From a virus, in IMG/VR virus record IMGVR_UViG_3300011438_000003, positions 1 through 54,602 of that record: a stretch of DNA of 54,602 nucleotides. The stretch is one strand, 5' to 3'. Positions 4,875-54,602 of the stretch are shown here, in pieces. The position numbers were made by a program, and so were the translations under genes. The notes under the pieces were generated by a model, which did no database searches, was not told where the DNA came from, and saw nothing but the letters and a program-made list of their open reading frames with translations. How positions within the stretch are numbered: position 1 is the first letter of the stretch; each line of letters begins with the position of its first letter.

Positions 4875-5080
4875 CGCTTTCCAGCCTTCGCCCGCGTCAT
4901 CGCGCGGACCACGAGGCGCTGCATCATTGCCTTGTGGTCAACCAAGAGCCGACGAACCAGCTCGCCCTGTGGGACACGAAACTGCTTCGAGTTTTCGCGC
5001 AGCCACGCCACGACGTCGGGATCGCATGGGATGCTGAGCATGACCTTCTTCTTTTTCGGAGCTGTGGTCATCGGCGGCAC
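4871..5080 (-). CDS. Putative ribbon-helix-helix (Arc/CopG-like) DNA-binding protein, 69 aa
   Basis: Basic N-terminus 'KKKK', then a beta-strand-like 'VMLSIP' and two helices ('DVVAWLRENSKQF', 'QGELVRRLLVDH'). Confidence 0.45.
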   Translation of the reverse strand: MPPMTTAPKKKKVMLSIPCDPDVVAWLRENSKQFRVPQGELVRRLLVDHKAMMQRLVVRAMTRAKAGKR

Positions 5081-5778
5081 CTCTCAAGAATGGGGGAAGT
5101 AATGGCTCTCTCCGTTGACCACCCTCGCTCTAACCTTGCGGCGATAGTGTCCGATGGAATTCCAGCGAACTCTGACCATGCCGACAACGGCATTGACCGA
5201 CCGTCGTGTTCAATGAGTCGATTGGTTCTCTTATTGCGGCCCTGCTGGATATTCGTGGCCCATCGGACATTCCCGGGCTCATAGTTGCCGTCGTTGTTGG
5301 GAAATCGATCTAGCGAATGCGCTGGCGTCGGCTTGCGCCCCACGTCAGCGAGGAACGCTGCGAAGTCGTTGCGCCAACGAGGGGCTACCCTAATCCCGCG
5401 CAGACCATAATTGGGGTAGCTGAGATGCGTCTTGCGATAGCAACGGTCCAGCATTCCGCGCCACGCAAGGTATTCCGGGCTAAGCCCACGAATAGCCCCG
5501 CCGTGCTTCACGTTGGCAGCCGAACACATGGCACCTTTTCGACACCCGCACGACTTAGTCGTACCGTTGCGCAGACTGGCGCCGCGTGTCTCGACCTGTT
5601 TCCCGCAGTCGCAGACGCATAGCCACACGGGCCAAGTATGGCTCCCCTTGGCACCTGTGCCGCTCCTGCGGAGCACAACCAACGAGCCGAATCGGCGGCG
5701 AGACATATCTATTGCCGGCATCATCGTGGCCACCAAAGCAGCGTGTGATCGACTTTGCTGTTGGCTCTCATGGCTCAC
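5068..5778 (-). CDS. Three-module DNA-binding protein (Zn-ribbon module A, degenerate HNH/AP2-like module B, C-terminal HTH), 236 aa
   Basis: Module A: 'WLCVCDCG...SCGC'. Module B: 'WRGMLDRC...YGLRGIRVAPRW...FLADVGRKP...SLDRFPNNDGNYEPGNVRWAT..QQGRNKR'. HTH: 'PLSAWSEFAGIPSDTIAARLERGWSTERAI'. This architecture is common in phage early regions. Confidence 0.65.
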   Translation of the reverse strand: MSHESQQQSRSHAALVATMMPAIDMSRRRFGSLVVLRRSGTGAKGSHTWPVWLCVCDCGKQVETRGASLRNGTTKSCGCRKGAMCSAANVKHGGAIRGLSPEYLAWRGMLDRCYRKTHLSYPNYGLRGIRVAPRWRNDFAAFLADVGRKPTPAHSLDRFPNNDGNYEPGNVRWATNIQQGRNKRTNRLIEHDGRSMPLSAWSEFAGIPSDTIAARLERGWSTERAITSPILERCRR

Positions 5779-6064
5779 TCCATCCGCGGACCACTGCCGC
5801 CAGCACTTCGAGGCTCGGGTTCGCGGCTACCGCCTGAGCGGCAACCCGGCGGGCTTCAGTGAGAGCGGCGAGCAGCGCCGGCACATCGGTCCTGGCGGCA
5901 GCGATAAACTCGGCATTCTGCCCATCGTCGCACTGCGCGAACAGGTAGCCGGTGCCGTCGAGAATGACGCGCGAGCCAGAGCCAACGGCGGGGGCGTCTC
6001 GCCACGGACCCGGCGTTGCGCCGGTGATGCGCTGGAGAATCTTCGAAAGATCGGCGCACGTCAT
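5768..6064 (-). CDS. Ead/Ea22-like family protein, 98 aa
   Basis: 'ATPGPWR' and 'NAEFIAAARTDVPALLAAL' are the signature stretches of Ead/Ea22-like phage proteins. ATG 6064 sits in an ATGA overlap. Confidence 0.6.
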   Translation of the reverse strand: MTCADLSKILQRITGATPGPWRDAPAVGSGSRVILDGTGYLFAQCDDGQNAEFIAAARTDVPALLAALTEARRVAAQAVAANPSLEVLAAVVRGWSEP

Positions 6065-6267
6065 GAGTGCGCCCCGTGCAGCTTCGCGAACTCCGCCGCG
6101 GGCGGTGTCATCGAGCGAGCGTTGTCGAACGGCGGCAGGTAGCGCCGAGCACCGCAAGGACAAGACAGCACCGTGCCCAACATGTCGTCCGCCATCGCGC
6201 GGAGCGTGGCGTTCAGCTCGATGCGCGAGAGCGCGAGCTGCAGCTTTTCAACATCGAGCGTCGTCAT
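6061..6267 (-). CDS. Hypothetical protein, 68 aa
   Basis: Internal ATG of ORF 6061..6414. ATGA overlaps at both ends. Confidence 0.5.
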   Translation of the reverse strand: MTTLDVEKLQLALSRIELNATLRAMADDMLGTVLSCPCGARRYLPPFDNARSMTPPAAEFAKLHGAHS

Positions 6268-6455
6268 CGCGCCAACTCCTCTCGAGTGAGCGGACAACAG
6301 AGCGTCACGTCGTCGAGCTGGCGCACTTCCGCCTGCCCGGCTGGGCACACGAACCTTTCGCCGGTGAGCCCATAGTGCAGATGACAGCGTGGGGTGGTCG
6401 CCGGCTGGGCGCACGCGAGCGCGAAGACGGCGGCGAGGAGGGCGAGGCGGGTCAT
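6264..6455 (-). CDS. Small predicted lipoprotein, 63 aa
   Basis: 'MTRLALLAAVFALAC' gives a signal peptide plus lipobox (FALAC). ATGA overlaps at both ends. Confidence 0.55.
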   Translation of the reverse strand: MTRLALLAAVFALACAQPATTPRCHLHYGLTGERFVCPAGQAEVRQLDDVTLCCPLTREELAR

Positions 6456-6715
6456 GCTGACTCCCGGTGCTTGTGTGGAATGACGAGAGCGCAGCCGACT
6501 ACGCCACAACTACCGGCCGGCGCGCTAATGCCGGGAGGCTTAAGAGGCAGTGGGGTTGCCAACAACGCGGCGGCTTTCTCGGTCCCGGTGGTGGGCTTCG
6601 TCGAGAACTGATCGACGTCGCTAAGCCGCACGTTCTTCTGCATCGCGGCTGCGGCAGGCTTGGCGGGATACGTTCGCCAGGCTTGCCCCGGCGGCTTTTT
6701 GGTGGGCGTGCTCAT
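6452..6715 (-). CDS. Hypothetical protein, 87 aa
   Basis: ORF in operon register with ATGA overlaps. Confidence 0.5.
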   Translation of the reverse strand: MSTPTKKPPGQAWRTYPAKPAAAAMQKNVRLSDVDQFSTKPTTGTEKAAALLATPLPLKPPGISAPAGSCGVVGCALVIPHKHRESA

Positions 6716-6936
6716 CGGCAGCGCCTTTCGATCGCAACGTCCTCAGCGCTCACGCCCGAAAGGCGCATGCAGCGAAGACACGAGCCGGTCTCGTTCTCGT
6801 TCTCGTTGTACGACCAGATCCACCGTTTCCCGTCGACGTGGTACGCCTGCCCGCAGAGCGTGAGTCCTCGCGGCTTTACATTGCGCGACACGTGGACCGT
6901 GCCGGTCGCGATGCGCTGGAGAGTGCCGCCCGTCAC
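6712..6936 (-). CDS. Hypothetical protein, 74 aa
   Basis: ORF in operon register with ATGA overlaps. Non-biased composition ('WIWSYNENENETGSCLRC'). Confidence 0.55.
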   Translation of the reverse strand: MTGGTLQRIATGTVHVSRNVKPRGLTLCGQAYHVDGKRWIWSYNENENETGSCLRCMRLSGVSAEDVAIERRCR

Positions 6937-7157
6937 TTCCGCCTCGCTTTCGCCGCAGCCTTGAGCAGCTCAACTGCCGCCATGAGGCAGCGTGCGTCGG
7001 TGCGGTGGCGGATGCGCTCTTCAACGTCGACGTCGATGACGCCCCAGTTTGCCGACGACTTCGCTTCGTCGCGGAAGAAGTGCAGCGCCGCACGACGGGC
7101 GACGACCGGCATCGCACGCCACCGCTTGATCGCTTGCGCGAGGGTCGGTGGCTTCAT
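6933..7157 (-). CDS. Hypothetical protein, 74 aa
   Basis: Internal ATG 7157 of ORF 6933..7406, in an ATGA overlap with the stop of 7154..7915. Confidence 0.5.
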   Translation of the reverse strand: MKPPTLAQAIKRWRAMPVVARRAALHFFRDEAKSSANWGVIDVDVEERIRHRTDARCLMAAVELLKAAAKARRK

Positions 7158-7870
7158 CGCCGCACCGCCTGACTTGCGAGCTCGACGAGCCATTGAGCGA
7201 GCGCCGGAGGCGTGCGACGACGTTGCTGCGCGGAGCAAACCTTGATGCCTGGCGGCACAAACCCGCCTGAGCCTTTGCGCGGATGCGGGCCCATGCCAGA
7301 TGCCCAATGCGTCGGAGTACCGCCGAATCTCAGCCCGTCGATCACTGCCTGGTACTCGATGCCTACGAAGTAGAGCCACGTTTTTTTGCGAGCAACATGG
7401 CCCCAAGAGACCTGCTCCACCTCAACACTGAACCCGCCGTCGGGGCCCTCGTAGTTGAGGGCATACGGTTCGGGAACCCCCATGCGCTCCCACAATTTGG
7501 AGCCGCGAGGCTGCTCGAGTACACCGCCCCACATGCGAACTTGCTCGACGGCGCGCGGACCACAGTCGGCGTCGTCTCGTTGATTCAAGTGTCGCAAGTT
7601 GCCCCAAGCGCCACACGGCGGATGCGCCACGACCGGCCACGGCCCATCGTAGGTCTTTGCGTCTCGAGCCTCGTCCCACCAATGCTCGACCAACGCGGGG
7701 TACGGACCGCGCGGATCGACGTAGAGCGCTGCAACGTTCGACACCTTCGACACGGCTAGCGCGCTCACAGCCGCCTCAGATCTCGCCGCTCCGCCCGCGT
7801 CGGCGCGATGCAGAACGAAAGGCAGACCGCTACGATGACGAGGGCGATCACGTGCCCACCCGCTCGCCAT
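7154..7870 (-). CDS. Hypothetical protein with C5-methyltransferase-like 'PPC' motif. Start uncertain (ATG 7870 or GTG 7768)
   Basis: 'VVAHPPCGAWGNL' (motif IV-like), 'VLEQP' (ENV-like), 'ARKKTW' (QxRxR-like), 'RRTPPALAQWLVELA' (motif X-like). No clear FxGxG SAM motif. Confidence 0.5.
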   Translation of the reverse strand: MASGWARDRPRHRSGLPFVLHRADAGGAARSEAAVSALAVSKVSNVAALYVDPRGPYPALVEHWWDEARDAKTYDGPWPVVAHPPCGAWGNLRHLNQRDDADCGPRAVEQVRMWGGVLEQPRGSKLWERMGVPEPYALNYEGPDGGFSVEVEQVSWGHVARKKTWLYFVGIEYQAVIDGLRFGGTPTHWASGMGPHPRKGSGGFVPPGIKVCSAQQRRRTPPALAQWLVELASQAVRR

Positions 7871-8492
7871 CTTCGATTGGCATAAGTCGAAGCACCACCC
7901 GCTGCCCGTGCTCATTCTTCAGCACACGAATGCTCCGGCTGGCAGCCTTATCAGTCGTCTCTATGAAGCCCTTGCGCACGAGCGCCCGCAGGTGATCGTT
8001 TACTGCGTTGGTAGATGTGACGCCGATGCGCCGCCCGATCTCGCGCATACTCGGCGGTACGCCTTCAGCCTCAATCGACTCACAGATGAACTTGAGCACT
8101 TCCAGTTGACGCGCCGTCAGTGCCCTCGATCCGTCAGCTGTCCACTCGACCGGACCGCGCACGGCCTGGCGCCTGTTGACGCCTTGAATTACAGGCAACG
8201 CCCATCGGCAATTGCCGGGTTCGTAGTTACCGTTGGTGTCGATGCGGTCGATCGAGTGGCGGTTGCTAGGGCGCGGGCCCATGTCCAACATGAACTGATC
8301 AAAACTGTCTCGCCAGCACTCGTGAACGACAATGCCCCGGCCACCATAGTTGGTATGTGGTGTCGGGCCGTGACACCGCGAGATCATCCCGCGCCAAATG
8401 CCGTGCTCACGGTCGAGCTTCCTAGAAGCTATCAACGGCCCGTTTGGCATGTTCCGAAACCGCGCGTCGAGGAAAGAGAGGTTCATTTCCAT
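7848..8492 (-). CDS. Fusion of degenerate HNH/AP2-like module B with a LexA-type winged-HTH domain (no S24 peptidase), 214 aa. First gene of the leftward block
   Basis: N-terminus: 'WRGMISRC...YGGRGIVVHECW...FMLDMGPRP...SIDRIDTNGNYEPGNCRW'. C-terminus: 'LTARQLEVLKFICESIEAEGVPPSMREIGRRIGVTSTNAVNDHLRALVRKGFI' matches the LexA N-terminal DNA-binding domain. GAGGG SD upstream. Confidence 0.7.
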   Translation of the reverse strand: MEMNLSFLDARFRNMPNGPLIASRKLDREHGIWRGMISRCHGPTPHTNYGGRGIVVHECWRDSFDQFMLDMGPRPSNRHSIDRIDTNGNYEPGNCRWALPVIQGVNRRQAVRGPVEWTADGSRALTARQLEVLKFICESIEAEGVPPSMREIGRRIGVTSTNAVNDHLRALVRKGFIETTDKAASRSIRVLKNEHGQRVVLRLMPIEDGERVGT

Positions 8493-8585
8493 TTTGCTAA
8501 ACCCTCGTTCAGTTGACGGTCTTCACTGGCGGCCGCACCTTCCCAGGCACTTAAGAAGGCTTGGCTTTCTTGGCGGTGCCCATGC

Positions 8586-9661: not shown

Positions 9662-10018
9662 GTGCCGAAGCCTTATGCGTGGCGGACCCTAGAGGGGCGA
9701 ATCCGTTGGATTATTGAGCAGGCGGAAGAGCGCGGTTTGAACCCGAGCGTTCTCAGTGTGAGGGCAGGGGCCAGCCGCGGATATCTTTCTCGCATCCCTC
9801 GCAAGCTGGAGAATCCGAAGGCCGACATGGGGATCCGTCTGCTTACCCGAACCTGCGAGGTTGCTGGGTTTGACCTCGGCTGGGTGGTAACGGGGGCCGG
9901 ATACCCCGATGAGGCCACCAAGCGTCTCTACGAGAAGGACGACGCGGCTGGTCAAGCGCTCCTCTCCGACGTGGTCCCCGTGGTACCGCCCCATAAGAAG
10001 CGCCGTACGGCCCACTAA
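9662..10018 (+). CDS. Second XRE-family HTH protein (Cro-like side of the switch), about 118 aa. GTG start uncertain
   Basis: 'ERGLNPSVLSVRAGASRGYLSRIPRK...AGFDLGWVVTGAG'. The upstream part of ORF 9281..10018 is antisense to the CI-like gene. The only in-frame canonical start after 9592 is GTG 9662. Confidence 0.55.
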   Translation: MPKPYAWRTLEGRIRWIIEQAEERGLNPSVLSVRAGASRGYLSRIPRKLENPKADMGIRLLTRTCEVAGFDLGWVVTGAGYPDEATKRLYEKDDAAGQALLSDVVPVVPPHKKRRTAH

Positions 10019-10100
10019 CCCCCGGGTAGCTGGCCCCACCTGGCCAGGCCGTTAACCCCAGGTTTAGGGGGCATGTCGATTTTTGTGCATTTGGCTTGCC

Positions 10101-10128
10101 GACTTTAGTCAACGTGTGTACTTTAGTC
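10101..10128 (+). promoter_or_regulatory. Two direct copies of (G)ACTTTAGTC (10101-10110 and 10120-10128) abutting ATG 10132. Candidate operator or promoter of the rightward early block
   Basis: Read directly. The 13-mer ACTTTAGTCGTCA is shared with 9584-9596. Confidence 0.65.
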
Positions 10129-10131
10129 GTC

Positions 10132-10539
10132 ATGAGCAAGCGATATTACTTCGGGCTCGCACGGCGGGCAGAGCGGCGTGATGCGGCGGTTGCCGCGCAA
10201 GCTACTGGTTTACAGGGAGCGTCGGGTGATGGGACGGCCGCAAGGCATGCCAAGCCCAGTGCGAAAGCGCTCCCTCTCGAAGCGGGCCGAATGATCAACG
10301 GCAGCGCAGGCCGGGCGTTGGAGAATAGCCAACCGCTCCCTGTAAGCCAGCAGAAACGCCGCGGTCCGCAACTGTCCCGCGAGCAACGCGCCCGCGTGCG
10401 GTCGATGATCGAAGACGAGGGGCAGACGCGCGCCGAGGCCGTGGCTTGGGTGTTGGCGTTCGAGCCCGCCACGGAGCCGCACAGTAACGACTGCCGGGTT
10501 TCGCTTCTCGGCGACATCTCGCTGGACGGTGCGCGATGA
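10132..10539 (+). CDS. Hypothetical protein, 135 aa. First gene of the rightward early block
   Basis: ATG 10132 of ORF 10096..10539. No SD, and the motif copy ends 3 nt upstream. Confidence 0.55.
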   Translation: MSKRYYFGLARRAERRDAAVAAQATGLQGASGDGTAARHAKPSAKALPLEAGRMINGSAGRALENSQPLPVSQQKRRGPQLSREQRARVRSMIEDEGQTRAEAVAWVLAFEPATEPHSNDCRVSLLGDISLDGAR

Positions 10540-10763
10540 GTACCTCCGCCTTTGGCATAGAGCGCGTGTATCTCGCTAGCCACATTCGTCGCGGTCGCCA
10601 GGCCACGTCGCCGACGTGGCAGGTTCGAACCGGCGGCTTCTTATGGCGCTTTCAGCGAATGGCCGATGCCGTTCGCTTCGTTGCAACCGGCGCGGAGTGT
10701 CCCAGCCACGAGCCGCTCTGCTGTCGCAACTGCCGCGGGCAACGCTCATTGGAGGACGCATGA
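10536..10763 (+). CDS. Hypothetical Cys-containing protein, 75 aa
   Basis: ATGA overlaps at both ends. Confidence 0.5.
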   Translation: MSTSAFGIERVYLASHIRRGRQATSPTWQVRTGGFLWRFQRMADAVRFVATGAECPSHEPLCCRNCRGQRSLEDA

Positions 10764-10963
10764 TCTCCCCCGGCAGCACCGAAGCGACGGTCGACTTCGA
10801 GCTAGCGCTTGAGCGGTTCGATGCGGCGCTACCGAGCGCGGGCGACATGCAGGTTTATCGCGCACGGCAAGCGCTCATGCAGGAAGCGCGGCGGCTCGCG
10901 CGCAGTTTCGCGGAGCGGCTTGATGCATTGGAAGCAGTTCACCAAGGGGAGATCTCGAAATGA
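10760..10963 (+). CDS. Hypothetical protein, 67 aa
   Basis: Internal ATG of ORF 10616..10963, in an ATGA overlap. Confidence 0.5.
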   Translation: MISPGSTEATVDFELALERFDAALPSAGDMQVYRARQALMQEARRLARSFAERLDALEAVHQGEISK

Positions 10964-11274
10964 CCGCCGCAGACCGCATCAATTCATCGTTCGAGCACTT
11001 CATGGCCGGCAGGCTCGTAGCCCGCCGCACCGAAGCAGCGCGGCACCCCGTTGACGTTCTCCCGCTGCGCTTCGTCTTCGAAGTCTCCGGTCTTCGCGGT
11101 GAGCTGTTCGCCATCATCTGCCATGTCACCGACGACGGCGGGCGGTTGATCGTCGACATCGAGCCGGGGCAGCAGTGGACAATGAAGGCGACGGGGTTCG
11201 AAGACGACGCCGAGCGGTGGGGTGATTGGCTTGTGGGCGAAGGGATTCGTAGCTGGTTGAGGAAAGGAATCTGA
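10960..11274 (+). CDS. Hypothetical protein, 104 aa
   Basis: ATGA overlap. Balanced composition. Confidence 0.6.
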   Translation: MTAADRINSSFEHFMAGRLVARRTEAARHPVDVLPLRFVFEVSGLRGELFAIICHVTDDGGRLIVDIEPGQQWTMKATGFEDDAERWGDWLVGEGIRSWLRKGI

Positions 11275-12324: not shown

Positions 12325-13775
12325 AACTGTTGCTCATTGACCTGTCGAGCGTCTTCTATCCTGCATGGCACATGAGAGACGGGAAGGACACCAACTTCCC
12401 CTACCAGGTGACGATCGAGCGCGTTCGAACGCTTGCCGCGCCGCATGATCACGTTGCCGTGCTTTGCGACTCCGGGCGATCGTTCCGCAAGGACATCTCG
12501 CCCGAGTACAAGGCGAACCGACCCGACAAGGACGAGGCGCTTATCGACCAGATCACGCGCGCCGAAGAGACACTCGCCAAAGACGGCTACCTCGTTCTGC
12601 GCGCGCCCGGCTTCGAGGCTGACGACTTGATCGCCACGATGGTCGCGTGGGCTGACCCGCAGGATCAGATCGAGACCACGGTCGCATCGTCGGACAAGGA
12701 TTTGCTTTCTCTCGTGGACGAACGCGTGCGCATCTACAGCCTAACGAAGGGCGTCACGCTCGGTATTCCCGATGTCGAAGCGAAGTTCGGGGTCAAGCCG
12801 TGGCAGATGCGCGATTTTTTGGCGTTGTGCGGTGACAGCTCGGACAACGTGCGCGGGATTCCTGGCGTTGGCCCGAAGACAGCCGCGAAGCTGCTTACCG
12901 ACTTCGGCGACATTGCTGGGATCTATTCGGCACTGAAGCAAGCGCCCGACGACGTGGCGACGCCGAGTGTGCGCAAGGCGCTGGCGGAAAACGTGGGTAA
13001 CCTCGACATCGCGATCAAGCTCGTAACGCTGCGCACGGACGCTCCGATCGACTGCGCTGCGGTGCTCTTGCCGCGCGAGGTCAAGCCGCTGGCTCAAGTC
13101 AACGAAGGCGAATTCACAGAGGAGGAAGACGTGGAAACGGACCCAACGAATCAGGCGAAGAGCGAACCAACGACCGCAATGACCAACACCGTAACGGACC
13201 TTCCGAAGCCGGCAACCGCCATCCAGCGCGCAAAGCTCGAAGAGGCTCCCGCGCCCGAAGATTGGGACAAGGCGCTCGAGCCGCGCACGCCAGGCCAGGC
13301 CGTTGTGATGGCTGGCAAGCTCTTCGATTCGCGGATGTTCGCCGGCTACGGCAACGAGAACGCCGTGCTTTCCACCATCCTGCTCGGCCGAGAGCTTGGC
13401 ATCGGCGCCATGGGCAGCCTTCGCGGAATCCACAATATAAAGGGGAAACACGCTCTTTCGGCTGACCTCATGGCCGCGCTCGTGATCCAGTCGGGGAAGG
13501 CGAAGTTCTTCGAGCCTGTGCTGCTCACGGCAACCAAGGCGACCTACCGCACGCATCGGATTGGCTCCGAGAAGCCCTTCGAGATGACCTTCGACTTCGA
13601 AGAGGCTCGTGTAGCTGGGCTCGTGAAGGACGATTCTGGCTGGGCCAAGTGGCCGATCGACATGTGCAAGGCGCGTTGTATCGCGCGGCTGGCGCGCACC
13701 ATCTACCCGGATGTTTGCTTCGGGTTGTACGTGCAGGAAGAGCTGGAGAGCATCAACGAAAGGGCGGCGGCGTGA
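12321..13775 (+). CDS. Fusion protein: FEN-type 5'-3' exonuclease (PIN + H3TH), acidic linker, then RecT-like single-strand annealing domain, 484 aa
   Basis: N-terminus: 'LLLIDLSSVFY', 'FRKDISPEYKANR', 'GFEADDLIAT', 'SSDKDLLSL', 'GDSSDNVRGIPGVGPKTAAKLL' (Pol I 5'-nuclease/FEN motifs). C-terminus: 'ILLGRELGIGAMGSLRGIHNIKGKHALSADLMAALVIQSGK...WAKWPIDMCKARCIARLARTIYPDV' (RecT-family pattern). GTG start in a GTGA overlap. Confidence 0.8.
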   Translation: MKLLLIDLSSVFYPAWHMRDGKDTNFPYQVTIERVRTLAAPHDHVAVLCDSGRSFRKDISPEYKANRPDKDEALIDQITRAEETLAKDGYLVLRAPGFEADDLIATMVAWADPQDQIETTVASSDKDLLSLVDERVRIYSLTKGVTLGIPDVEAKFGVKPWQMRDFLALCGDSSDNVRGIPGVGPKTAAKLLTDFGDIAGIYSALKQAPDDVATPSVRKALAENVGNLDIAIKLVTLRTDAPIDCAAVLLPREVKPLAQVNEGEFTEEEDVETDPTNQAKSEPTTAMTNTVTDLPKPATAIQRAKLEEAPAPEDWDKALEPRTPGQAVVMAGKLFDSRMFAGYGNENAVLSTILLGRELGIGAMGSLRGIHNIKGKHALSADLMAALVIQSGKAKFFEPVLLTATKATYRTHRIGSEKPFEMTFDFEEARVAGLVKDDSGWAKWPIDMCKARCIARLARTIYPDVCFGLYVQEELESINERAAA

Positions 13776-45093: not shown

Positions 45094-46998
45094 TCAATTC
45101 GGCGCGCCGTTCATCGGCGGCGGCATCTGTGGCGGTGCGCCCATCGGCGGCATCTCGCCTCCGGGCATCGGCGGTAGTTCGGGCGGTGCGCCGGCTGGCC
45201 CAGCGCCGAGCGCGGGCGGCGGCGGTTCGATCGTCTCGCCCTCCAGCATCTTGCTGCACCACGCGACGAACACGGTCAGCTTCTCGAGGTTCGCCTTCGG
45301 GTACCAGCCGCGCACGCGAGCGAGTAGGTAAGCGTTCGTCGCCATGTGCATCGCGAGCTCTAGATCCATCAGCGGCTCAGGCTTCTGGTCTTTGCCGTCT
45401 TCGAGCATGGCATCGATCATCATCTTGATGATGTCGTGCGAGGCGTTGTCGAGATCTGCAAACTCCTCGATGTCGGGGAAGTCAGCGAGCCGCTTGAAAT
45501 CGGCCGTCGTGATTAGGCCGGAGTTTTTCCAGTCTTCGAGCGTCGCGATCCTGCCCGCTGGCGTGGTTGGCAGCGCGCTCGTCGGGAAGACGCGGATGCG
45601 GTACTGGTTCGGCTGGAGCCCTTTGAACTTGTTGAAGTCGACCAGCTCGATCGCCTTCTTGCCGTGGTAGACGACGGCGTATTTGCCGGTGCGCATGAAC
45701 ACGTCGCGCATCAGCACCGTCTTGTACTCGGCCGCGTCGCGGTGGAACGTCTCGTAGCGCTTCGCAAAGTCGATAAACCTGCGTGACTTCGATTGCTCGT
45801 AGGCTTTGATCGATTTCCCCGACGTGAGCTGAGCGGGGACCATCGACTGCGCGGCTAGCTGATTCGTCCCGTTCTGCTGGTACATCTGGTCGATGCGCCA
45901 TTGCATATGTTGGAAGAACTCGGGATGGACGGTGCCTGGCGTCGCCCACTCTGGCTTCGCACCGGAGGTGAAGTTGCCGCGTACGATCGTGCCGATGAGG
46001 TCGTCGATGCTTGAGTTGAGAACGCCCGCGTTATTGTCGATGAGGATCTTCATCCCGGCGCGGGCCATCGATTCCTTGATGAACCGATCCAGGCGGTTCA
46101 CCATCGCCTGCTCGCCGCGAAGGTCGTCAATGAGCGACGTCGACCAAAAGCCGACCTGTGGAATCTCCCACTTCAGGAAGAAGTATGGCGACTGCTTGCG
46201 CTTCCACGGCGCGTCGTAAAGCCTCGCTTTCGACGTGCAGATGAAGTGCCGCCCGTCCTCTGTCGCGGGCCGGTAGTCGTCTTTGTTGTCCGGATCGCCC
46301 CACTCGCAGATGCTCGGCAGGCGGATCCCCTCGACGACCGTGACCAGATCGCTATCGCGGTCGAAGCTGAAGAATGGATCGGTGTCGGCGCTGGCCGACT
46401 TGTCGATCTCTTCTTTCAGGTCGTCGTACTCCGCCATCAGCACGCCCTTGTCGACCTGCGTGACGTGGTAGAACGTCATCGGGCGGCCGTAGTAGGCCTC
46501 TTGCATTGGCACGACGACTTCCCAGTTCATCAGCCGCTCGCACTCGACACGGTCGGTGATGTGGTTGTCGAAGATCTTCTCGATGCCGTCGCCAACGCAG
46601 AGCGCGTCTTTGCAGAGCAGCGGGGAGATCTCCTCCTGCCCGTCCTCGACCGTCTGGCCTTCGATGAGCTTGTCGAGCCCCTTCGCCGCCTTCTGAATGT
46701 CGTGCGTGCCGCCTTCGGAAACGACCATCATGCGCGGGCGGTTCTGCGTGATCTCCGCGTGCGTCGAATTGATGATGTTCTTTACAACGTTGACGCTGCT
46801 GCGCTCGCCACGGCCGCGCTGGGCGTAGTCTCGCAGGCTCAGGCCCAACATCGGCTCGGCGCCGTAGTAGCAAAGGTTGGTCAGCGCTCGCTTCTCGCGC
46901 TCGAGCTGGTCATCGCGTAGCTTGTGCGCGATGCCGTAGACCTCTTTGAACGGGTCCGGGTAGGCCTTGCGGTCCCACCACTGGGGATTGGAGCTCAT
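45094..46998 (-). CDS. Portal protein, 634 aa
   Basis: Size and position. Pro/Gly/Met-rich C-terminal tail 'PPELPPMPGGEMPPMGAPPQMPPPMNGAPN'. ATG 46998 in an ATGA overlap. Confidence 0.75.
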   Translation of the reverse strand: MSSNPQWWDRKAYPDPFKEVYGIAHKLRDDQLEREKRALTNLCYYGAEPMLGLSLRDYAQRGRGERSSVNVVKNIINSTHAEITQNRPRMMVVSEGGTHDIQKAAKGLDKLIEGQTVEDGQEEISPLLCKDALCVGDGIEKIFDNHITDRVECERLMNWEVVVPMQEAYYGRPMTFYHVTQVDKGVLMAEYDDLKEEIDKSASADTDPFFSFDRDSDLVTVVEGIRLPSICEWGDPDNKDDYRPATEDGRHFICTSKARLYDAPWKRKQSPYFFLKWEIPQVGFWSTSLIDDLRGEQAMVNRLDRFIKESMARAGMKILIDNNAGVLNSSIDDLIGTIVRGNFTSGAKPEWATPGTVHPEFFQHMQWRIDQMYQQNGTNQLAAQSMVPAQLTSGKSIKAYEQSKSRRFIDFAKRYETFHRDAAEYKTVLMRDVFMRTGKYAVVYHGKKAIELVDFNKFKGLQPNQYRIRVFPTSALPTTPAGRIATLEDWKNSGLITTADFKRLADFPDIEEFADLDNASHDIIKMMIDAMLEDGKDQKPEPLMDLELAMHMATNAYLLARVRGWYPKANLEKLTVFVAWCSKMLEGETIEPPPPALGAGPAGAPPELPPMPGGEMPPMGAPPQMPPPMNGAPN

Positions 46999-47387
46999 GA
47001 CGTCGGCACCACGACGAGTCGCCCGATGTTGCGGTTGATCGAAACGATCTTCCAATCGCGGCCAGGCCGTACGTGCTCCCAGGTGAGAGGCTCAGCGAGA
47101 CACGCGGAAAGCTTCACGTGGTCAGCAATCGTCATCTCGACGGGCACGCGAACGGCTCTACCGTTCGTGAAGCATGCACGTTCGTAGGTGCTGAGCTGCT
47201 CACTCATCGCGGCAGCTCCGTCACGGTGAACGCGCCGCCGCTTATGTCGATGGTAGGAGGCAGAGCGCGCAGATCGTTGCGCGTCGCCGGCTTCGGTCTC
47301 ACCTTCGAACGGCTTCGGCGTCAGCCCATCCGCGGACGCAAGCGCGCCGATCATCATCTCGACGAAGAGCGACGTGGCGCGCCTCAC
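46995..47387 (-). CDS. Hypothetical protein, up to 130 aa (GTG 47387 by overlap logic; ATG 47207 would give 70 aa)
   Basis: The C-terminal 70 aa look genuine ('MSEQLSTYERACFTNGRAVRVPVEMTIADHVKL...'). The longer form is supported only by the GTGA overlap at 47384-47387. Confidence 0.45.
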   Translation of the reverse strand: MRRATSLFVEMMIGALASADGLTPKPFEGETEAGDAQRSARSASYHRHKRRRVHRDGAAAMSEQLSTYERACFTNGRAVRVPVEMTIADHVKLSACLAEPLTWEHVRPGRDWKIVSINRNIGRLVVVPTS

Positions 47388-47539
47388 GGTAGGGCAATCC
47401 TTCCGTTGAGACCGAGTCGGACTTGCCGATCGTGCCACATCTGAGCCAGCTTGATGTTGCGCTCGTCGTAGCTCGACAATGGGGGAGCTTGCGGTATCGG
47501 CTCGACGTGAACCGGCTTGCCCTCCGCGTCGAGGATCAC
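47384..47539 (-). CDS. Possible micro-ORF, 51 aa (GTG start)
   Basis: Hand-translated 'VILDAEGKPVHVEPIPQAPPLSSYDERNIKLAQMWHDRQVRLGLNGRIALP'. GTGA overlaps at both ends. Confidence 0.35.
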   Translation of the reverse strand: MILDAEGKPVHVEPIPQAPPLSSYDERNIKLAQMWHDRQVRLGLNGRIALP

Positions 47540-47706
47540 GACCGGTCCTCGACGAACTGCGCGCCGTCTCCCTGCGCGTTGATGCCGTCGTCGGACAGCT
47601 CACACGCTGGGCACAGCGGCGAGCGCCAGTAGTGCGTGAACCCGCAGCGCTCACAGCGGCGCGAACGGATGCCAGCAAAACGCAGTTCGGTGGGCTCGAC
47701 GTTCAA
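47536..47706 (-). CDS. Small Zn-ribbon protein, 56 aa (TTG start)
   Basis: 'CERCGFTHYWRSPLCPAC'. TTGA overlap with the upstream stop. Confidence 0.45.
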   Translation of the reverse strand: MNVEPTELRFAGIRSRRCERCGFTHYWRSPLCPACELSDDGINAQGDGAQFVEDRS

Positions 47707-47996
47707 TCGTCCGCTCCCCCGTCGCCTTCGACGTGCTCGCGGCTGTTCCACTTCGGATCGGCAACCCACGGCGGTGGCCCCCCGACGTGCGCCCACTCGT
47801 TGTCGAGCGATCGATTCCGAACCGCTTCGCGCAGGTCCGACTCGCTCACCGGCTTGCCCGCCGCGCGCTCCACAGCGGGCGGCCCGAACTCGAGCTCTAA
47901 CCCGTCGGACGCGCGATACCGCCGCACGCCACGGGCACGGAGCGCGTCGACGAGCGTGAGCAGGGCGTCGGTGTCGGGCTGTGCCACTTCGGACAA
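47703..47996 (-). CDS. Hypothetical protein, 97 aa (TTG start, or GTG 47987). First gene of the portal/structural block
   Basis: ORF with balanced composition, directly downstream of the divergent control region. Confidence 0.55.
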   Translation of the reverse strand: MSEVAQPDTDALLTLVDALRARGVRRYRASDGLELEFGPPAVERAAGKPVSESDLREAVRNRSLDNEWAHVGGPPPWVADPKWNSREHVEGDGGADD

Positions 47997-48001
47997 GGTT
48001 C

Positions 48002-48030
48002 CACATATGTGCCAGGTTGTGCCATATGTG
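48002..48030. promoter_or_regulatory. Inverted repeat CACATATG-N13-CATATGTG in the divergent gap 47997-48067
   Basis: Read directly. The 10-mer GTTGTGCCAT is directly repeated at 48016-48025 and 48060-48069. Confidence 0.6.
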
Positions 48031-48040
48031 ACTTGACTTG

Positions 48041-48057
48041 TGGCGCACTTTGCGCCA
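48041..48057. promoter_or_regulatory. Palindrome/hairpin TGGCGCA-CTT-TGCGCCA
   Basis: Read directly. 7-bp arms, 11 nt upstream of ATG 48068. Confidence 0.55.
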
Positions 48058-48067
48058 ACGTTGTGCC

Positions 48068-48253
48068 ATGGTTGCTACAACGAAACCACGACTACCGAAG
48101 CGTCAAGCAATGCGACTTGCAGCCGAAACCGGGCTCGATTGGCGCACCGTCGACCGCGCTTACTCCGGCGGCCGCGTCGCCACCGCCACGCGTGAACTCC
48201 TGCTCCGCGCCTCCAAGGATCTGGAGTGTCTGCCGCCTCCCGAGGCGCCGTGA
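48068..48253 (+). CDS. Small HTH DNA-binding protein (LacI-type HTH only), 61 aa
   Basis: 'RQAMRLAAETGLDWRTVDRAYSGGRVATATRELLLRASKDL' resembles the N-terminal HTH of LacI/PurR-family regulators. No ligand-binding domain. Confidence 0.55.
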   Translation: MVATTKPRLPKRQAMRLAAETGLDWRTVDRAYSGGRVATATRELLLRASKDLECLPPPEAP

Positions 48254-48477
48254 CCATCCTCGAAGACCATCGCAAGATCAAAACGCCCAACATCATACCA
48301 GCGCGGGAACTGGTCGACACGCTTCCGGATGACGTGGCAGTGACGGCTCCGCAAGCCGACGCAGTGCTCGGTGTGGTCGAAGACGCGCAGCGCGATGCGC
48401 TCGACGCAGCGGCCAACCTCGCAGAGATCTGCGGGCATCCGCTGACGGCCGACATGATACGGTCGATGAAGCCATGA
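48250..48477 (+). CDS. Hypothetical protein, 75 aa (GTG start)
   Basis: GTGA overlap. In frame with ORF 48226..48477. Confidence 0.5.
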   Translation: MTILEDHRKIKTPNIIPARELVDTLPDDVAVTAPQADAVLGVVEDAQRDALDAAANLAEICGHPLTADMIRSMKP

Positions 48478-48797
48478 GCGCCGCCGTCGAAGACGCCATC
48501 AAGCGACTCGCCGCTCGGTTCGCGGCAGAAGGCTTGCCGATCGCACGCTACGAGCAAGAGATGTCCAACGCGATCCGCGCCGGCTACGGGTTCGGGCTGG
48601 CCGACGCGATAGGAGTCGTCGTTGGTCGACTCACTGAGCTTGATGGCTTGATCGGCAAGGGCAGCGACCGAGAGATTCGTGGGCAGGCCAAAGAACTGTC
48701 TGACCTCTGCGAGAGGATCGAGACGCTGGCTGCACTCACCCCAGTCGAGCCGGTCGACCGCGAAGAGCTGAGGCGGCGCTACCCGGTGAAGACATGA
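48474..48797 (+). CDS. Hypothetical protein, 107 aa
   Basis: ATGA overlap. Confidence 0.6.
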   Translation: MSAAVEDAIKRLAARFAAEGLPIARYEQEMSNAIRAGYGFGLADAIGVVVGRLTELDGLIGKGSDREIRGQAKELSDLCERIETLAALTPVEPVDREELRRRYPVKT

Positions 48798-49039
48798 GCC
48801 ACGCCGGACGCCTTGCCCTCGCCTACGAGCTCTATGCGCCGATCATCGCGACCACCTGCGAACACTGCGGCCATACGACCTACGAGCGCAAGGAAGGCGC
48901 GGGGGTGATCGACAAGGAAACGTACGTGCGGCTAATCAACTCGGGGGAAGCTGCGGCAGGCGAGTTCGTGTCGCTACTCCCAGCTGAGGCGGTGGTCGCC
49001 TTCGAGAAGGGCATCGGGGGAGTGCCGCCCAAAACATGA
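48794..49039 (+). CDS. Hypothetical protein, 81 aa
   Basis: ATGA overlap. 'CEHCGH'. Confidence 0.55.
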   Translation: MSHAGRLALAYELYAPIIATTCEHCGHTTYERKEGAGVIDKETYVRLINSGEAAAGEFVSLLPAEAVVAFEKGIGGVPPKT

Positions 49040-49272
49040 GCGGCCGAGTTTTTTCCATCTCGCTCGGCAAGTTCCTGGAGCCGCGTCAGGGCCCATGCGA
49101 ACTGATCAGCGAGTCGCGCTGCACTTGTGGCGCCTTGCTTGGGCGGGTCGAGCGAGATCCAGACGGGAGCCCGTCGAGCTGGGGTTACGGCTGGTGTCCG
49201 AAGTGCTTCGGGCCGCGGATGACAGTGAAGGAAGACGGCTCGGTCGAGGTCAGATTTGGACGAGCGCGTTAG
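49036..49272 (+). CDS. Hypothetical Zn-ribbon-like protein, 78 aa
   Basis: ATGA overlap. 'CTCG...CPKC'. Its stop overlaps the terL stop on the other strand. Confidence 0.55.
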   Translation: MSGRVFSISLGKFLEPRQGPCELISESRCTCGALLGRVERDPDGSPSSWGYGWCPKCFGPRMTVKEDGSVEVRFGRAR

Positions 49273-50891
49273 TCGTCCTCCCAGTACTCGCGTTTCTCCT
49301 GCCGCTCAATCTCCGCTTCATCTTCTTTCTCTTCCTTCGCCGCCTCGCGCGCGACCCACTCAGGCGAGCCAGGCGGCAGCTCCACCACCACCGCCGCTGG
49401 GTCGTCGAGGTAGTACGACAGCGCTCCTACCACAGCGGGCGCATAGTCGCAGTGACGCCCGTCTGCAGTGGGCGGTAGGATGATCTTCGCCCCGGTCTGC
49501 GTGGCGCGCTTCTTCAACGCAAGCAGGTCGGCCCGCACGAACGGGTCCGAAGGCAAGTCAACATCGCCCATCGCCACGCGCGTAGCGAACGACGAGTAGC
49601 GGTTTAGCTTCTTCTTCTCGTCCGAAGTGAACAGCGTTAGCGACAGCCCGAATTGCTCGGCGATGTCCCGGTTTGCGTCTCCTGACCAGAGATCCGATGC
49701 GACCGAGCGTAGGCCGTACGCTTGGCAGATCTCCGAGATCTCACCCAGCACAGCGCGAGGCGACAGCGGCACAGCTTTCGACCCGATCCACTGACGGGCG
49801 AGGACGATCGACAGCCTCACGCGGTCACCAACGCGGCGGCGCGTTCCGATCGCGAGGGTCCAAGCGTTGCCGCGTGTGGCCGGGTCCATCATCGCGAAGT
49901 ACTGGTGCCCGTACTCGCGCGCGATCACGTCGGTGTCTGGGCTGCCGTCTGGCCGGCGCCGCAAGCACTTCTCCAGGTCCACGGCGCTGAGAAGCGACTC
50001 CTCGGGGTCGAGGAACTCACACAGAATGTCGGTCCGGTGCACGTCGGGCCGGTTCACGCGCAGGTACTCGACCGCTTCCGGCGTCCACGTGACCGGGTTC
50101 ATGTGGTGCGCGGGCGCCTTGATGACGACCAGCGAGCGCGTCGGCCTGCCGAAAGACTCGGTGACCATCTGGTAGATCGGACCGCGCGGCGCCCACACAG
50201 AGCCGATGTCGATGACCTGCGCACCAGGGAGCAGCCGCCCGAACACCGCGCTGTGCATGTCGTCGAGGTTCACCACCCCGTCCTCCTGACCGACCATGCG
50301 AGGAGCCTCGTCGAACGCAGCGCCCGCGGACCAGCGAGCAACGAGAGTCGTGCCCGCCTTCGCTCCGGCGACGACCTTGATCTCGACCGGCCTGCCGCTG
50401 GGATGGCGGAGCGTGACGGTGTCGGCCGTGGGCTCTTCAACCAGCAGCCTTCGAAGGTCGGGACGCTCGCGCACGTTGCCGACGATGTGCTGCAGGATGA
50501 CGTCGGCCAGGTCGAGCCGGGTCGAGACGACCGAGTAGCGCGCGGTCTCGCCTGGGCCGAGCCGCGAGATGTCGCATGTTTGCGTTGCCGAGATGGCCAC
50601 GCAGGCGGCGAGCATCGACTTGGCCGACCGGATGCCGCTGAGCAGCGCGATATGCGAGCAGCGCGTCGCTGGTATGCGCGCAATGGCATCGACGCCACCC
50701 ACCGCGGCGATGACGTGCGGGTCCGAGGCGAGATCGCCAAGCGGGCGCCCGTCGATGATCCGGCAGCACGCGCGCTGCAACGGCGACGCGGTGGTGAGAG
50801 CGAAATAGCGCAGCTCGGTCAGCAGCTCCTCGACCGTCGGCGGTCGGATCGCACGACGGCGGAGCTCTTCGATGATGGCCGCGGTGGACAC
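49269..50891 (-). CDS. terL: Terminase large subunit, 540 aa
   Basis: Walker-A-like 'LLSGIRSAKS', Walker-B-like 'AAFDEAP', nuclease-domain acidic motif 'YFAMMDPA', acidic C-terminus. Confidence 0.75.
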   Translation of the reverse strand: MSTAAIIEELRRRAIRPPTVEELLTELRYFALTTASPLQRACCRIIDGRPLGDLASDPHVIAAVGGVDAIARIPATRCSHIALLSGIRSAKSMLAACVAISATQTCDISRLGPGETARYSVVSTRLDLADVILQHIVGNVRERPDLRRLLVEEPTADTVTLRHPSGRPVEIKVVAGAKAGTTLVARWSAGAAFDEAPRMVGQEDGVVNLDDMHSAVFGRLLPGAQVIDIGSVWAPRGPIYQMVTESFGRPTRSLVVIKAPAHHMNPVTWTPEAVEYLRVNRPDVHRTDILCEFLDPEESLLSAVDLEKCLRRRPDGSPDTDVIAREYGHQYFAMMDPATRGNAWTLAIGTRRRVGDRVRLSIVLARQWIGSKAVPLSPRAVLGEISEICQAYGLRSVASDLWSGDANRDIAEQFGLSLTLFTSDEKKKLNRYSSFATRVAMGDVDLPSDPFVRADLLALKKRATQTGAKIILPPTADGRHCDYAPAVVGALSYYLDDPAAVVVELPPGSPEWVAREAAKEEKEDEAEIERQEKREYWEDD

Positions 50892-54400: not shown

Positions 54401-54455
54401 GTAGACACCTGACCCAATGTTGGGAGTGTCGTCAGTGACGCCGATCTACAACTAT

Positions 54456-54465
54456 TCCTATAGGA
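54456..54465. promoter_or_regulatory. 10-bp palindrome TCCTATAGGA upstream of the terS-like gene
   Basis: Read directly. Followed by GAGCTC, CGCGCG, the direct CGTCT CGTCT and an AT-rich gtgatatatag (54492-54502). Confidence 0.5.
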
Positions 54466-54479
54466 GCTCGCGCGCGTCT

Positions 54480-54602
54480 CGTCTAAAGACAGTGATATAT
54501 AGGGCGCAATGGGGATTTGGCGACACTGGCGACACTCGCGACACTCACGCATTGCTGGGCCCCCCTCTTTCGACGTAGAGAACCGGGTGATATCGGGCAT
54601 CA
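54480..54602. repeat. Terminal direct repeat copy 2 (identical to 1-123)
   Basis: Read directly. Confidence 0.95.

Follow-up and report, generated by a model that had tools for sequence, protein, structure and literature searches.

An opposite-strand five-gene island between terL and the portal genes of an uncultured phage: a probable accessory operon in a hypervariable slot

The window analyzed here is an entire record, IMG/VR virus IMGVR_UViG_3300011438_000003 (positions 1 to 54,602), i.e. a 54.6-kb phage genome with a guanine plus cytosine (GC) content of 63.6%. Between terL, the gene of the large terminase, and the chain of genes leading to the portal, which are on the minus strand, five open reading frames (ORF1 to ORF5) occupy the plus strand at 48068–49272. 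We judge it probable, though short of firm, that these genes make up a self-contained, moron-type accessory operon, inserted in a hypervariable slot and probably repressed by the product of its own first gene, a small helix-turn-helix (HTH) protein. This reading is carried by the anatomy of the island, by the orphan status of the cargo encoded by ORF2 to ORF5, by related phages that lack the island or have something else in its place, and by an association of HTH gene and promoter-like geometry that is common with one of these relatives.

The terL-to-portal interval was read in 11 relatives, labelled L001, L003, etc. The gene that opens the portal chain in the window, m97 (minus strand, 47703–47996, TTG start), belongs to a family with the motif AHVxGGPP that is kept in 8 relatives, directly before the portal or directly after terL. 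In L057 and L059 the m97-family gene follows terL on the same strand, after 44 and 92 bp respectively, and precedes two small genes and the portal. In L056 and L058 terL is followed by two small genes of the same strand, and in L006 by a portal-sized gene directly. L001, L004 and L005 carry large same-strand genes after terL, one of them with a Peptidase_S74 match, then a gene for a protein of ~170 amino acids (aa), the m97-like gene and the portal. In the closest relative, L003, whose portal and m97-like proteins are 69% and 43% identical to those of the window, terL is followed by an ATGA-coupled gene for a 59-aa zinc-ribbon protein (9686–9865), by ~350 non-coding bp and by the m97-like gene; no opposite-strand ORF resembling any island gene was found at this junction. 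Within this non-coding stretch of L003, ARAGORN calls a tRNA-Met-like sequence on the opposite strand (10004–10074), which Rfam does not confirm at gathering score.

Other cargo is present at the same place in two relatives. L020, the portal of which is 60% identical to that of the window, has directly after terL a membrane acyltransferase gene (9780–10979; Pfam Acyl_transf_3, 2.8e-20), of a kind classically linked to lysogenic conversion, and then a backwards cassette in which a 65-aa HTH ORF (11428–11231) is ATGA-coupled to a 90-aa ORF, the end of which runs into the acyltransferase gene. This HTH ORF diverges from the m97-like gene over a gap of 101 bp. In L007, the slot contains eight opposite-strand genes (4911–8571), including those of an integrase, an Xis-like HTH protein, a lipoprotein and two secreted M10 peptidases, so that the integration module of this phage is situated inside the packaging/head region. 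From the order of terL and the m97-like gene in the relatives, the junction is normally continuous and co-directional, and has been filled independently with differing cargo. As judged from these gene orders, the terL/m97 junction is thus a hypervariable slot and the island one of its fillings.

The bor gene of phage lambda is an example of a moron. Like the morons reviewed in PMC3594210, the island consists of extra genes placed between conserved late genes and missing at that position in relatives, and like some of them it is read in the direction opposite to the late genes. The likeness extends to its slot, which holds unrelated cargo in relatives, i.e. the acyltransferase of L020 and the lipoproteins of L007.

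The island is a chain of five ORFs with overlapping stops and starts, the successive junctions being GTGA, ATGA, ATGA and ATGA. ORF1 (48068–48253) encodes a basic three-helix HTH protein of 61 aa (isoelectric point, pI, 10.0). ORF2 (48250–48477) encodes an acidic protein (pI 4.5) of 75 aa from a GTG start, its frame being likewise open from GTG 48226 (83 aa). ORF3 (48474–48797) encodes a predicted all-helical orphan of 107 aa, ORF4 (48794–49039) a protein of 81 aa with one CxxC knuckle (TCEHCGH; C22 and C25), and ORF5 (49036–49272) a protein of 78 aa with the pattern CxC...CxxC (C29xC31...C54xxC57, plus C21). The coding potential was evaluated by a codon-usage log-odds score trained on the long genes of the same genome and compared over six frames: ORF2, ORF3 and ORF4 score +18.7, +19.3 and +19.9 respectively. 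At its end the island converges on terL (minus strand, 49269–50891; PHROG terminase match) in the sequence TTAG (49269–49272), which combines the TAG of ORF5 (49270–49272) with the TAA of terL (49269–49271 on the minus strand). At its other end it diverges from the m97-portal chain over a 71-bp control region (47997–48067). An earlier note on this DNA, made from the letters alone, had described five coupled ORFs, the overlapping stops, a divergent gap rich in palindromes and four non-HTH proteins that it could not recognize, and all of this agrees with our results. The same note attributed CxxC pairs to two of the proteins; this is right for the cysteine set of ORF5, while ORF4 contains a single CxxC only.

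The structure of ORF1 was modelled with AlphaFold2 without alignment (predicted local distance difference test score, pLDDT, 76), giving helices at residues 11–21, 25–32 and 39–51. In a Foldseek search of the PDB, DNA-binding domains of LacI/GalR proteins dominate the top ~20 matches (probability at most 0.97, template-modelling score ~0.6 on the query, E 0.6–2). Superposed on the headpieces of CcpA, CelR, LacI and PurR, the ORF1 model shows root-mean-square deviations of 1.4–2.0 Å over 41–44 columns with 27–39% identity, and its recognition helix carries the motif RTVDR, a further likeness to the LacI/GalR headpiece. Unlike the LacI/GalR repressors it ends at residue 61, with no hinge helix and no sugar-binding, effector or dimerisation core. 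At the level of sequence the link is not significant: Pfam LacI (PF00356) is unmatched even at E ≤ 1, and a sequence comparison with the PDB gives LacI-family chains at E values of 0.07–1.4. We therefore describe ORF1 as LacI-headpiece-like and not as a member of the LacI family, so that its first designation, LacI-type and HTH-only, is borne out by the fold alone. A match of ORF1 to DUF5546 (E 9e-4) lies under the gathering score and was not used.

No homologue of ORF1 was found in a set of 5.8 billion proteins, a search whose sensitivity is limited by its word index. ORF1 does align with the 65-aa HTH protein of L020 (38% identity over 32 aa, pairwise E 3e-5), from residue 6 onwards, so that the alignment takes in the basic arm before helix 1. 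The public gene call starts ORF1 at ATG 48110 (47 aa). The alignment from residue 6, together with the conserved promoter geometry described below, favours ATG 48068 over ATG 48110. Weak ORF1-like ORFs also occur in L014, L006 and L038; their contexts are unclear and they were not used.

The 71-bp gap has a GC content of 53.5%, against 64% in the island, and the corresponding gap of L020 is also at 53.5%. On the plus strand it contains a -35-like hexamer TTGACT (48033–48038), its first base exactly 35 nt ahead of ATG 48068, then after a 17-nt spacer a weak -10-like hexamer CAACGT (48056–48061; A2 and T6), which ends 6 nt before the ATG and implies a leaderless mRNA. In L020 a TTGACA is likewise placed 35 nt ahead of the HTH start, with CAGACT at the -10 position, so that both genomes have CANNNT 5–6 nt before the ATG. 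This common layout, TTGACN-29 nt-ATG, suggests a promoter making a leaderless mRNA, and it is shared by two phages with HTH proteins of only 38% identity. The TTGACN geometry at an ORF start has one other occurrence in the genome, inside a gene: this TTGACN-N28-30-ATG site (12335–12372) lies within a 484-aa FEN-RecT gene, with TGGCACA beside the ATG, and is probably a coincidence.

The spacer between the two hexamers is filled by a perfect dyad, TGGCGCA-ctt-TGCGCCA (48041–48057). This is the classic place for an autorepressor to bind, which makes the dyad the best candidate operator. Upstream of the -35-like hexamer and adjoining the m97 start there is an inverted repeat, CACATATG-N13-CATATGTG (48002–48030). 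In addition, TGTGCCA is present in four direct copies on the plus strand (47980, 48008, 48018 and 48062), of which the first falls in codons 4–6 of m97 and the last takes in the A of ATG 48068. These four are among the seven copies of the genome, all four within 47980–48068, a clustering reached in ~1e-5 of random placements. The putative operator motifs are purely local and recur nowhere else in the genome, which argues for local rather than global control.

On this basis we propose the following mechanism. A host polymerase of the sigma70 type would start at TTGACT-17 nt-CAACGT-6 nt-ATG and make a leaderless mRNA beginning at the ORF1 start codon, from which the five ORFs would be translated as one coupled chain. 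ORF1 would then bind the dyad between -35 and -10 and shut its own promoter. This autorepression would keep the output low and limit convergent transcription into terL, a rationale that parallels the one given for Aca proteins (PMC6765145, PMC9410906). The cargo proteins, small and cytoplasmic (two acidic or helical, one with half a knuckle and one zinc ribbon), would act on proteins of the host or of rival phages, with a role in superinfection exclusion, defence or counter-defence and not in virion assembly or late-gene control. The opposite orientation would suit expression while the late genes are silent, i.e. in a lysogen or very early in infection. Expression may thus be that of a prophage defence or that of an early counter-defence, two cases that the data do not separate.

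By the searches made, the four cargo proteins are orphans. None of the five island proteins has a meaningful match in Pfam, PHROGs, NCBIfam or PADLOC, nor a credible one among 50,697 phage records; 401 sampled Myxococcota genomes return only noise (~17 bits), and the genome itself contains no paralogue of any of them. The C-terminal 33 aa of ORF2 are 58% identical to the product of a 60-aa gene of L005, which belongs to an array of small genes upstream of terL; no other relative of ORF2 was found in the 5.8-billion protein set, with the same limit of sensitivity as for ORF1. For ORF3, a search of 1.84 billion representative proteins gave no credible homologue, the only two other matches being short stretches of long multi-stretch proteins. 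Its AlphaFold2 model consists of five helices (pLDDT 58); at this value the fold search was uninformative and returned only designed or coiled-coil helices.

ORF4 gives only short knuckle matches to ZPR1. A common knuckle, CxxCG[HF]x[HT], can be drawn between ORF4 (48833–48889), the 56-aa zinc-ribbon protein of the portal chain (47623–47679) and the zinc-ribbon protein of L003 (9686–9730), at a non-significant level (E ~1). The evidence for ORF5 as a gene consists of its open frame, its ATGA coupling and its CxC...CxxC pattern. It is the sole cargo protein with enough cysteines for a zinc ribbon and is thus a probable zinc-ribbon protein by its cysteine pattern, although it matches no Pfam family at E ≤ 1 and nothing in the PDB. 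We take its CxC-22-CxxC spacing to be reminiscent of Ogr/Delta of phage P2, as a matter of spacing only. A role of this kind was rejected, the Pfam family Ogr_Delta being unmatched.

Several observations weigh against an accessory operon under its own autorepressor. A consensus scan of both strands over 46900–49600 calls no sigma70-type promoter, and the -10-like hexamer is weak. A parallel scan finds no intrinsic terminator on either strand of the same interval, nor from the island to 52484, so that the cassette falls short of a textbook independent unit. It is not obvious by which surface a LacI-type headpiece of 61 aa would dimerise on a dyad operator. The codon-usage scores are weak for ORF1 (+0.7) and ORF5 (-2.1), each being nevertheless the best of six frames; as a gene, ORF1 is further backed by its predicted fold and by its positional homologue in L020. 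The GC content of the island (64.1%) is that of the genome (63.6%) and so gives no compositional sign of recent import; at third codon positions it is somewhat lower in the island (0.65–0.78) than in terL and the portal gene (0.84). Finally, a 22-nt block that partly overlaps the 48002–48030 repeat has a counterpart in L003 (16 of 22 positions identical) in front of the m97-like gene, where there is no HTH gene; some of the repeats may therefore serve the m97 side. By our estimate a block of this kind is expected by chance in about one of ten such comparisons. In comparison with morons, the island thus differs by the lack of a detected terminator or compositional difference, by a promoter that we infer from its layout, and by its content of five coupled genes with their own regulator instead of a single gene.

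Two of the alternatives are specific forms of the accessory reading. In the first, the island would be a counter-defence operon of the acr-aca kind: a strong early promoter would give a burst of inhibitors encoded by ORF2 to ORF5, before the HTH protein shuts the promoter as Aca proteins do. We regard this as possible but rather unlikely. Autorepression of acr promoters by Aca is documented (PMC6765145, PMC9410906), and bidirectional regulation is reported as well (PMC12282945). Several features are as in acr-aca operons: a small HTH gene in one operon with tiny orphan ORFs, an inverted repeat over the core promoter, a location in the structural module, and a regulator kept as an anchor with exchangeable cargo, as the comparison with L020 indicates. 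The acidity of ORF2 (pI 4.5) also speaks for this form. However, the HTH gene comes first in the island, whereas aca usually follows the acr genes (PMC8633003); the weak -10-like hexamer does not look like that of a strong promoter; and searches of Pfam, PHROGs, NCBIfam and PADLOC, which include no dedicated Acr/Aca library, reveal no resemblance to known Aca or Acr families.

In the second, the island would be a defence or exclusion module expressed from the prophage, opposite to the lytic genes, and would block an incoming phage, e.g. at packaging or assembly, with self-immunity provided by m97 or by the 56-aa zinc-ribbon, 51-aa or 130-aa proteins of the portal chain. We give it only a minor chance as well. 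The orientation of the island inside the packaging/head module, next to four small late-strand genes, fits this scheme, and a report on TERi describes the same layout, with counter-defence encoded among the lytic genes, and cites it also for Tab, Tai and Tha/Ith (bioRxiv 10.1101/2025.02.27.640495). As in these systems, lytic modules are interrupted by small genes of the opposite strand, in an orientation that would separate lysogenic from lytic expression. The other morons found in the slot, i.e. the L020 acyltransferase and the L007 lipoproteins, point in the same direction. In contrast, the island proteins have no homology to TERi, Tab, Tai or Tha/Ith and no PADLOC match, and m97 is a core gene that is also present in relatives without the island, which makes it no dedicated immunity partner.

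A bolder extension can be formulated only tentatively. ORF1 and its L020 homologue might represent an Aca-like anchor regulator of a new kind, placed between terL and portal in an undescribed lineage of myxobacterial phages, the exchangeable orphan cargo (ORF2 to ORF5 in the window, the 90-aa protein in L020) being new counter-defence or prophage-defence proteins, or else the HTH node might also gate a leftward promoter of the portal operon and so couple accessory and late-gene control.

The earlier note had left two roles side by side for the island, a late-gene switch and a self-contained accessory system. Its absence from L003, L057 and L059 and the other cargo held by L020 and L007 in the slot support the second. 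A role in late-gene switching is unlikely. In the form considered here, which we find improbable, ORF1, possibly with ORF5, would control a leftward promoter in the gap for the m97-portal genes and the remaining structural and lysis genes of the 24-kb block, and so set the timing of late expression. Some of the data do go this way. The divergent layout sets the operator-like repeats across the m97 start, one TGTGCCA copy being inside m97, and the same divergent pairing of an HTH gene with an m97-like gene recurs in L020. An internal late promoter is moreover conceivable from the non-coding spacers before the pre-portal genes of relatives (~350 bp in L003 and 93–145 bp in L001, L004 and L005), and the 22-nt block common with L003 lies upstream of the m97-like gene.

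On the other side, L003, L057 and L059 do without any HTH gene between terL and the m97-like gene, L057 and L059 having only 44–92 bp there, and even in L020 the cargo is not kept. The consensus scan finds no leftward sigma70-like promoter. A sigma54-like candidate on the minus strand (48054–48068; TGGCACAACGTTGGC, of the form TGGCAC-N5-TGGC, one mismatch from the -24/-12 consensus) was rejected, as it is at chance level (3 matches in the genome for 3.7 expected) and missing from L020. The operator motifs are not repeated at the other candidate late control region (54401–54546), and a late-promoter motif common to the two gaps was also discarded, no shared stretch of at least 8 nt being found. 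ORF5 matches neither Pfam Ogr_Delta nor any other family, and the block common with L003 has the chance expectation given above. The earlier note further held that transcription of the late block must begin at a separate promoter at about 48000. This does not follow, since the scans detect no leftward sigma70-like promoter and no terminator on either strand: antisense read-through from terL to m97 is possible and can feed the portal block. The switch is thus weakened by the relatives that lack the island, and what remains in its favour is the recurrence of the divergent pairing in L020.

The immI region of P22 (mnt, arc, ant) is an operon headed by a small repressor, with overlapping operators, in the midst of the late region of that temperate phage. 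A secondary-immunity or antirepressor operon of this type, with a downstream product inactivating the prophage repressor, is very improbable here: the island resembles it as an operon with operator-like dyads, headed by a small DNA-binding protein and surrounded by late genes in a temperate, podovirus-like phage, but the fold of ORF1 is HTH and not ribbon-helix-helix, no Ant, Arc or Mnt homologue was found with Pfam, and the cargo is orphan.

If the accessory operon is accepted, it is an otherwise typical cassette whose points of interest are a regulator reduced to a LacI-like headpiece, a leaderless-type geometry and a little-known phage lineage. In a lineage with hardly any sequenced phage, it marks the terL/m97 junction as a hot spot of gene exchange. 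The small HTH anchor with its leaderless-type geometry could be used for mining accessory or anti-defence genes in such phages. For annotators there is also a caution, namely that an interrupted terL-portal order need not mean a separate late operon.

On the minus strand, m97 is followed, in a coupled chain, by the genes of a 56-aa zinc-ribbon protein (TTG start, 47706–47536; weak zf-ChsH2 match), a 51-aa protein (GTG, 47539–47384) and a 130-aa protein (GTG, 47387–46995), and the chain leads into the portal gene (45094–46998; PHROG portal match). The portal start is likely ATG 46998, which shares an ATGA with the stop codon of the 130-aa ORF; the first in-frame TTG (47055) is less likely. No non-coding RNA or tRNA was found in the window.

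DNA comparison against phages found no closer relatives. Peptide-pattern scans of IMG/VR and JGI metagenomes for terL, ORF3 and the portal returned nothing, or only portals ~35% identical. At the protein level, terL has a single distant match (28.6% identity) among 50,697 GenBank phage records, and more than 1000 relatives in metagenomes and metagenome-assembled genomes (MAGs), the best at 59% identity. The named genome records that contain such relatives are mostly MAGs of Polyangiaceae and other Myxococcota. The host of this uncultured phage is on these grounds likely a myxobacterium, and the distribution of terL points to an undescribed group of myxobacterial phages or prophages. Bases 1–123 of the window are identical to bases 54480–54602 at its other end, leaving ~54,479 unique bases, so that the genome is either circularly closed or terminally redundant.

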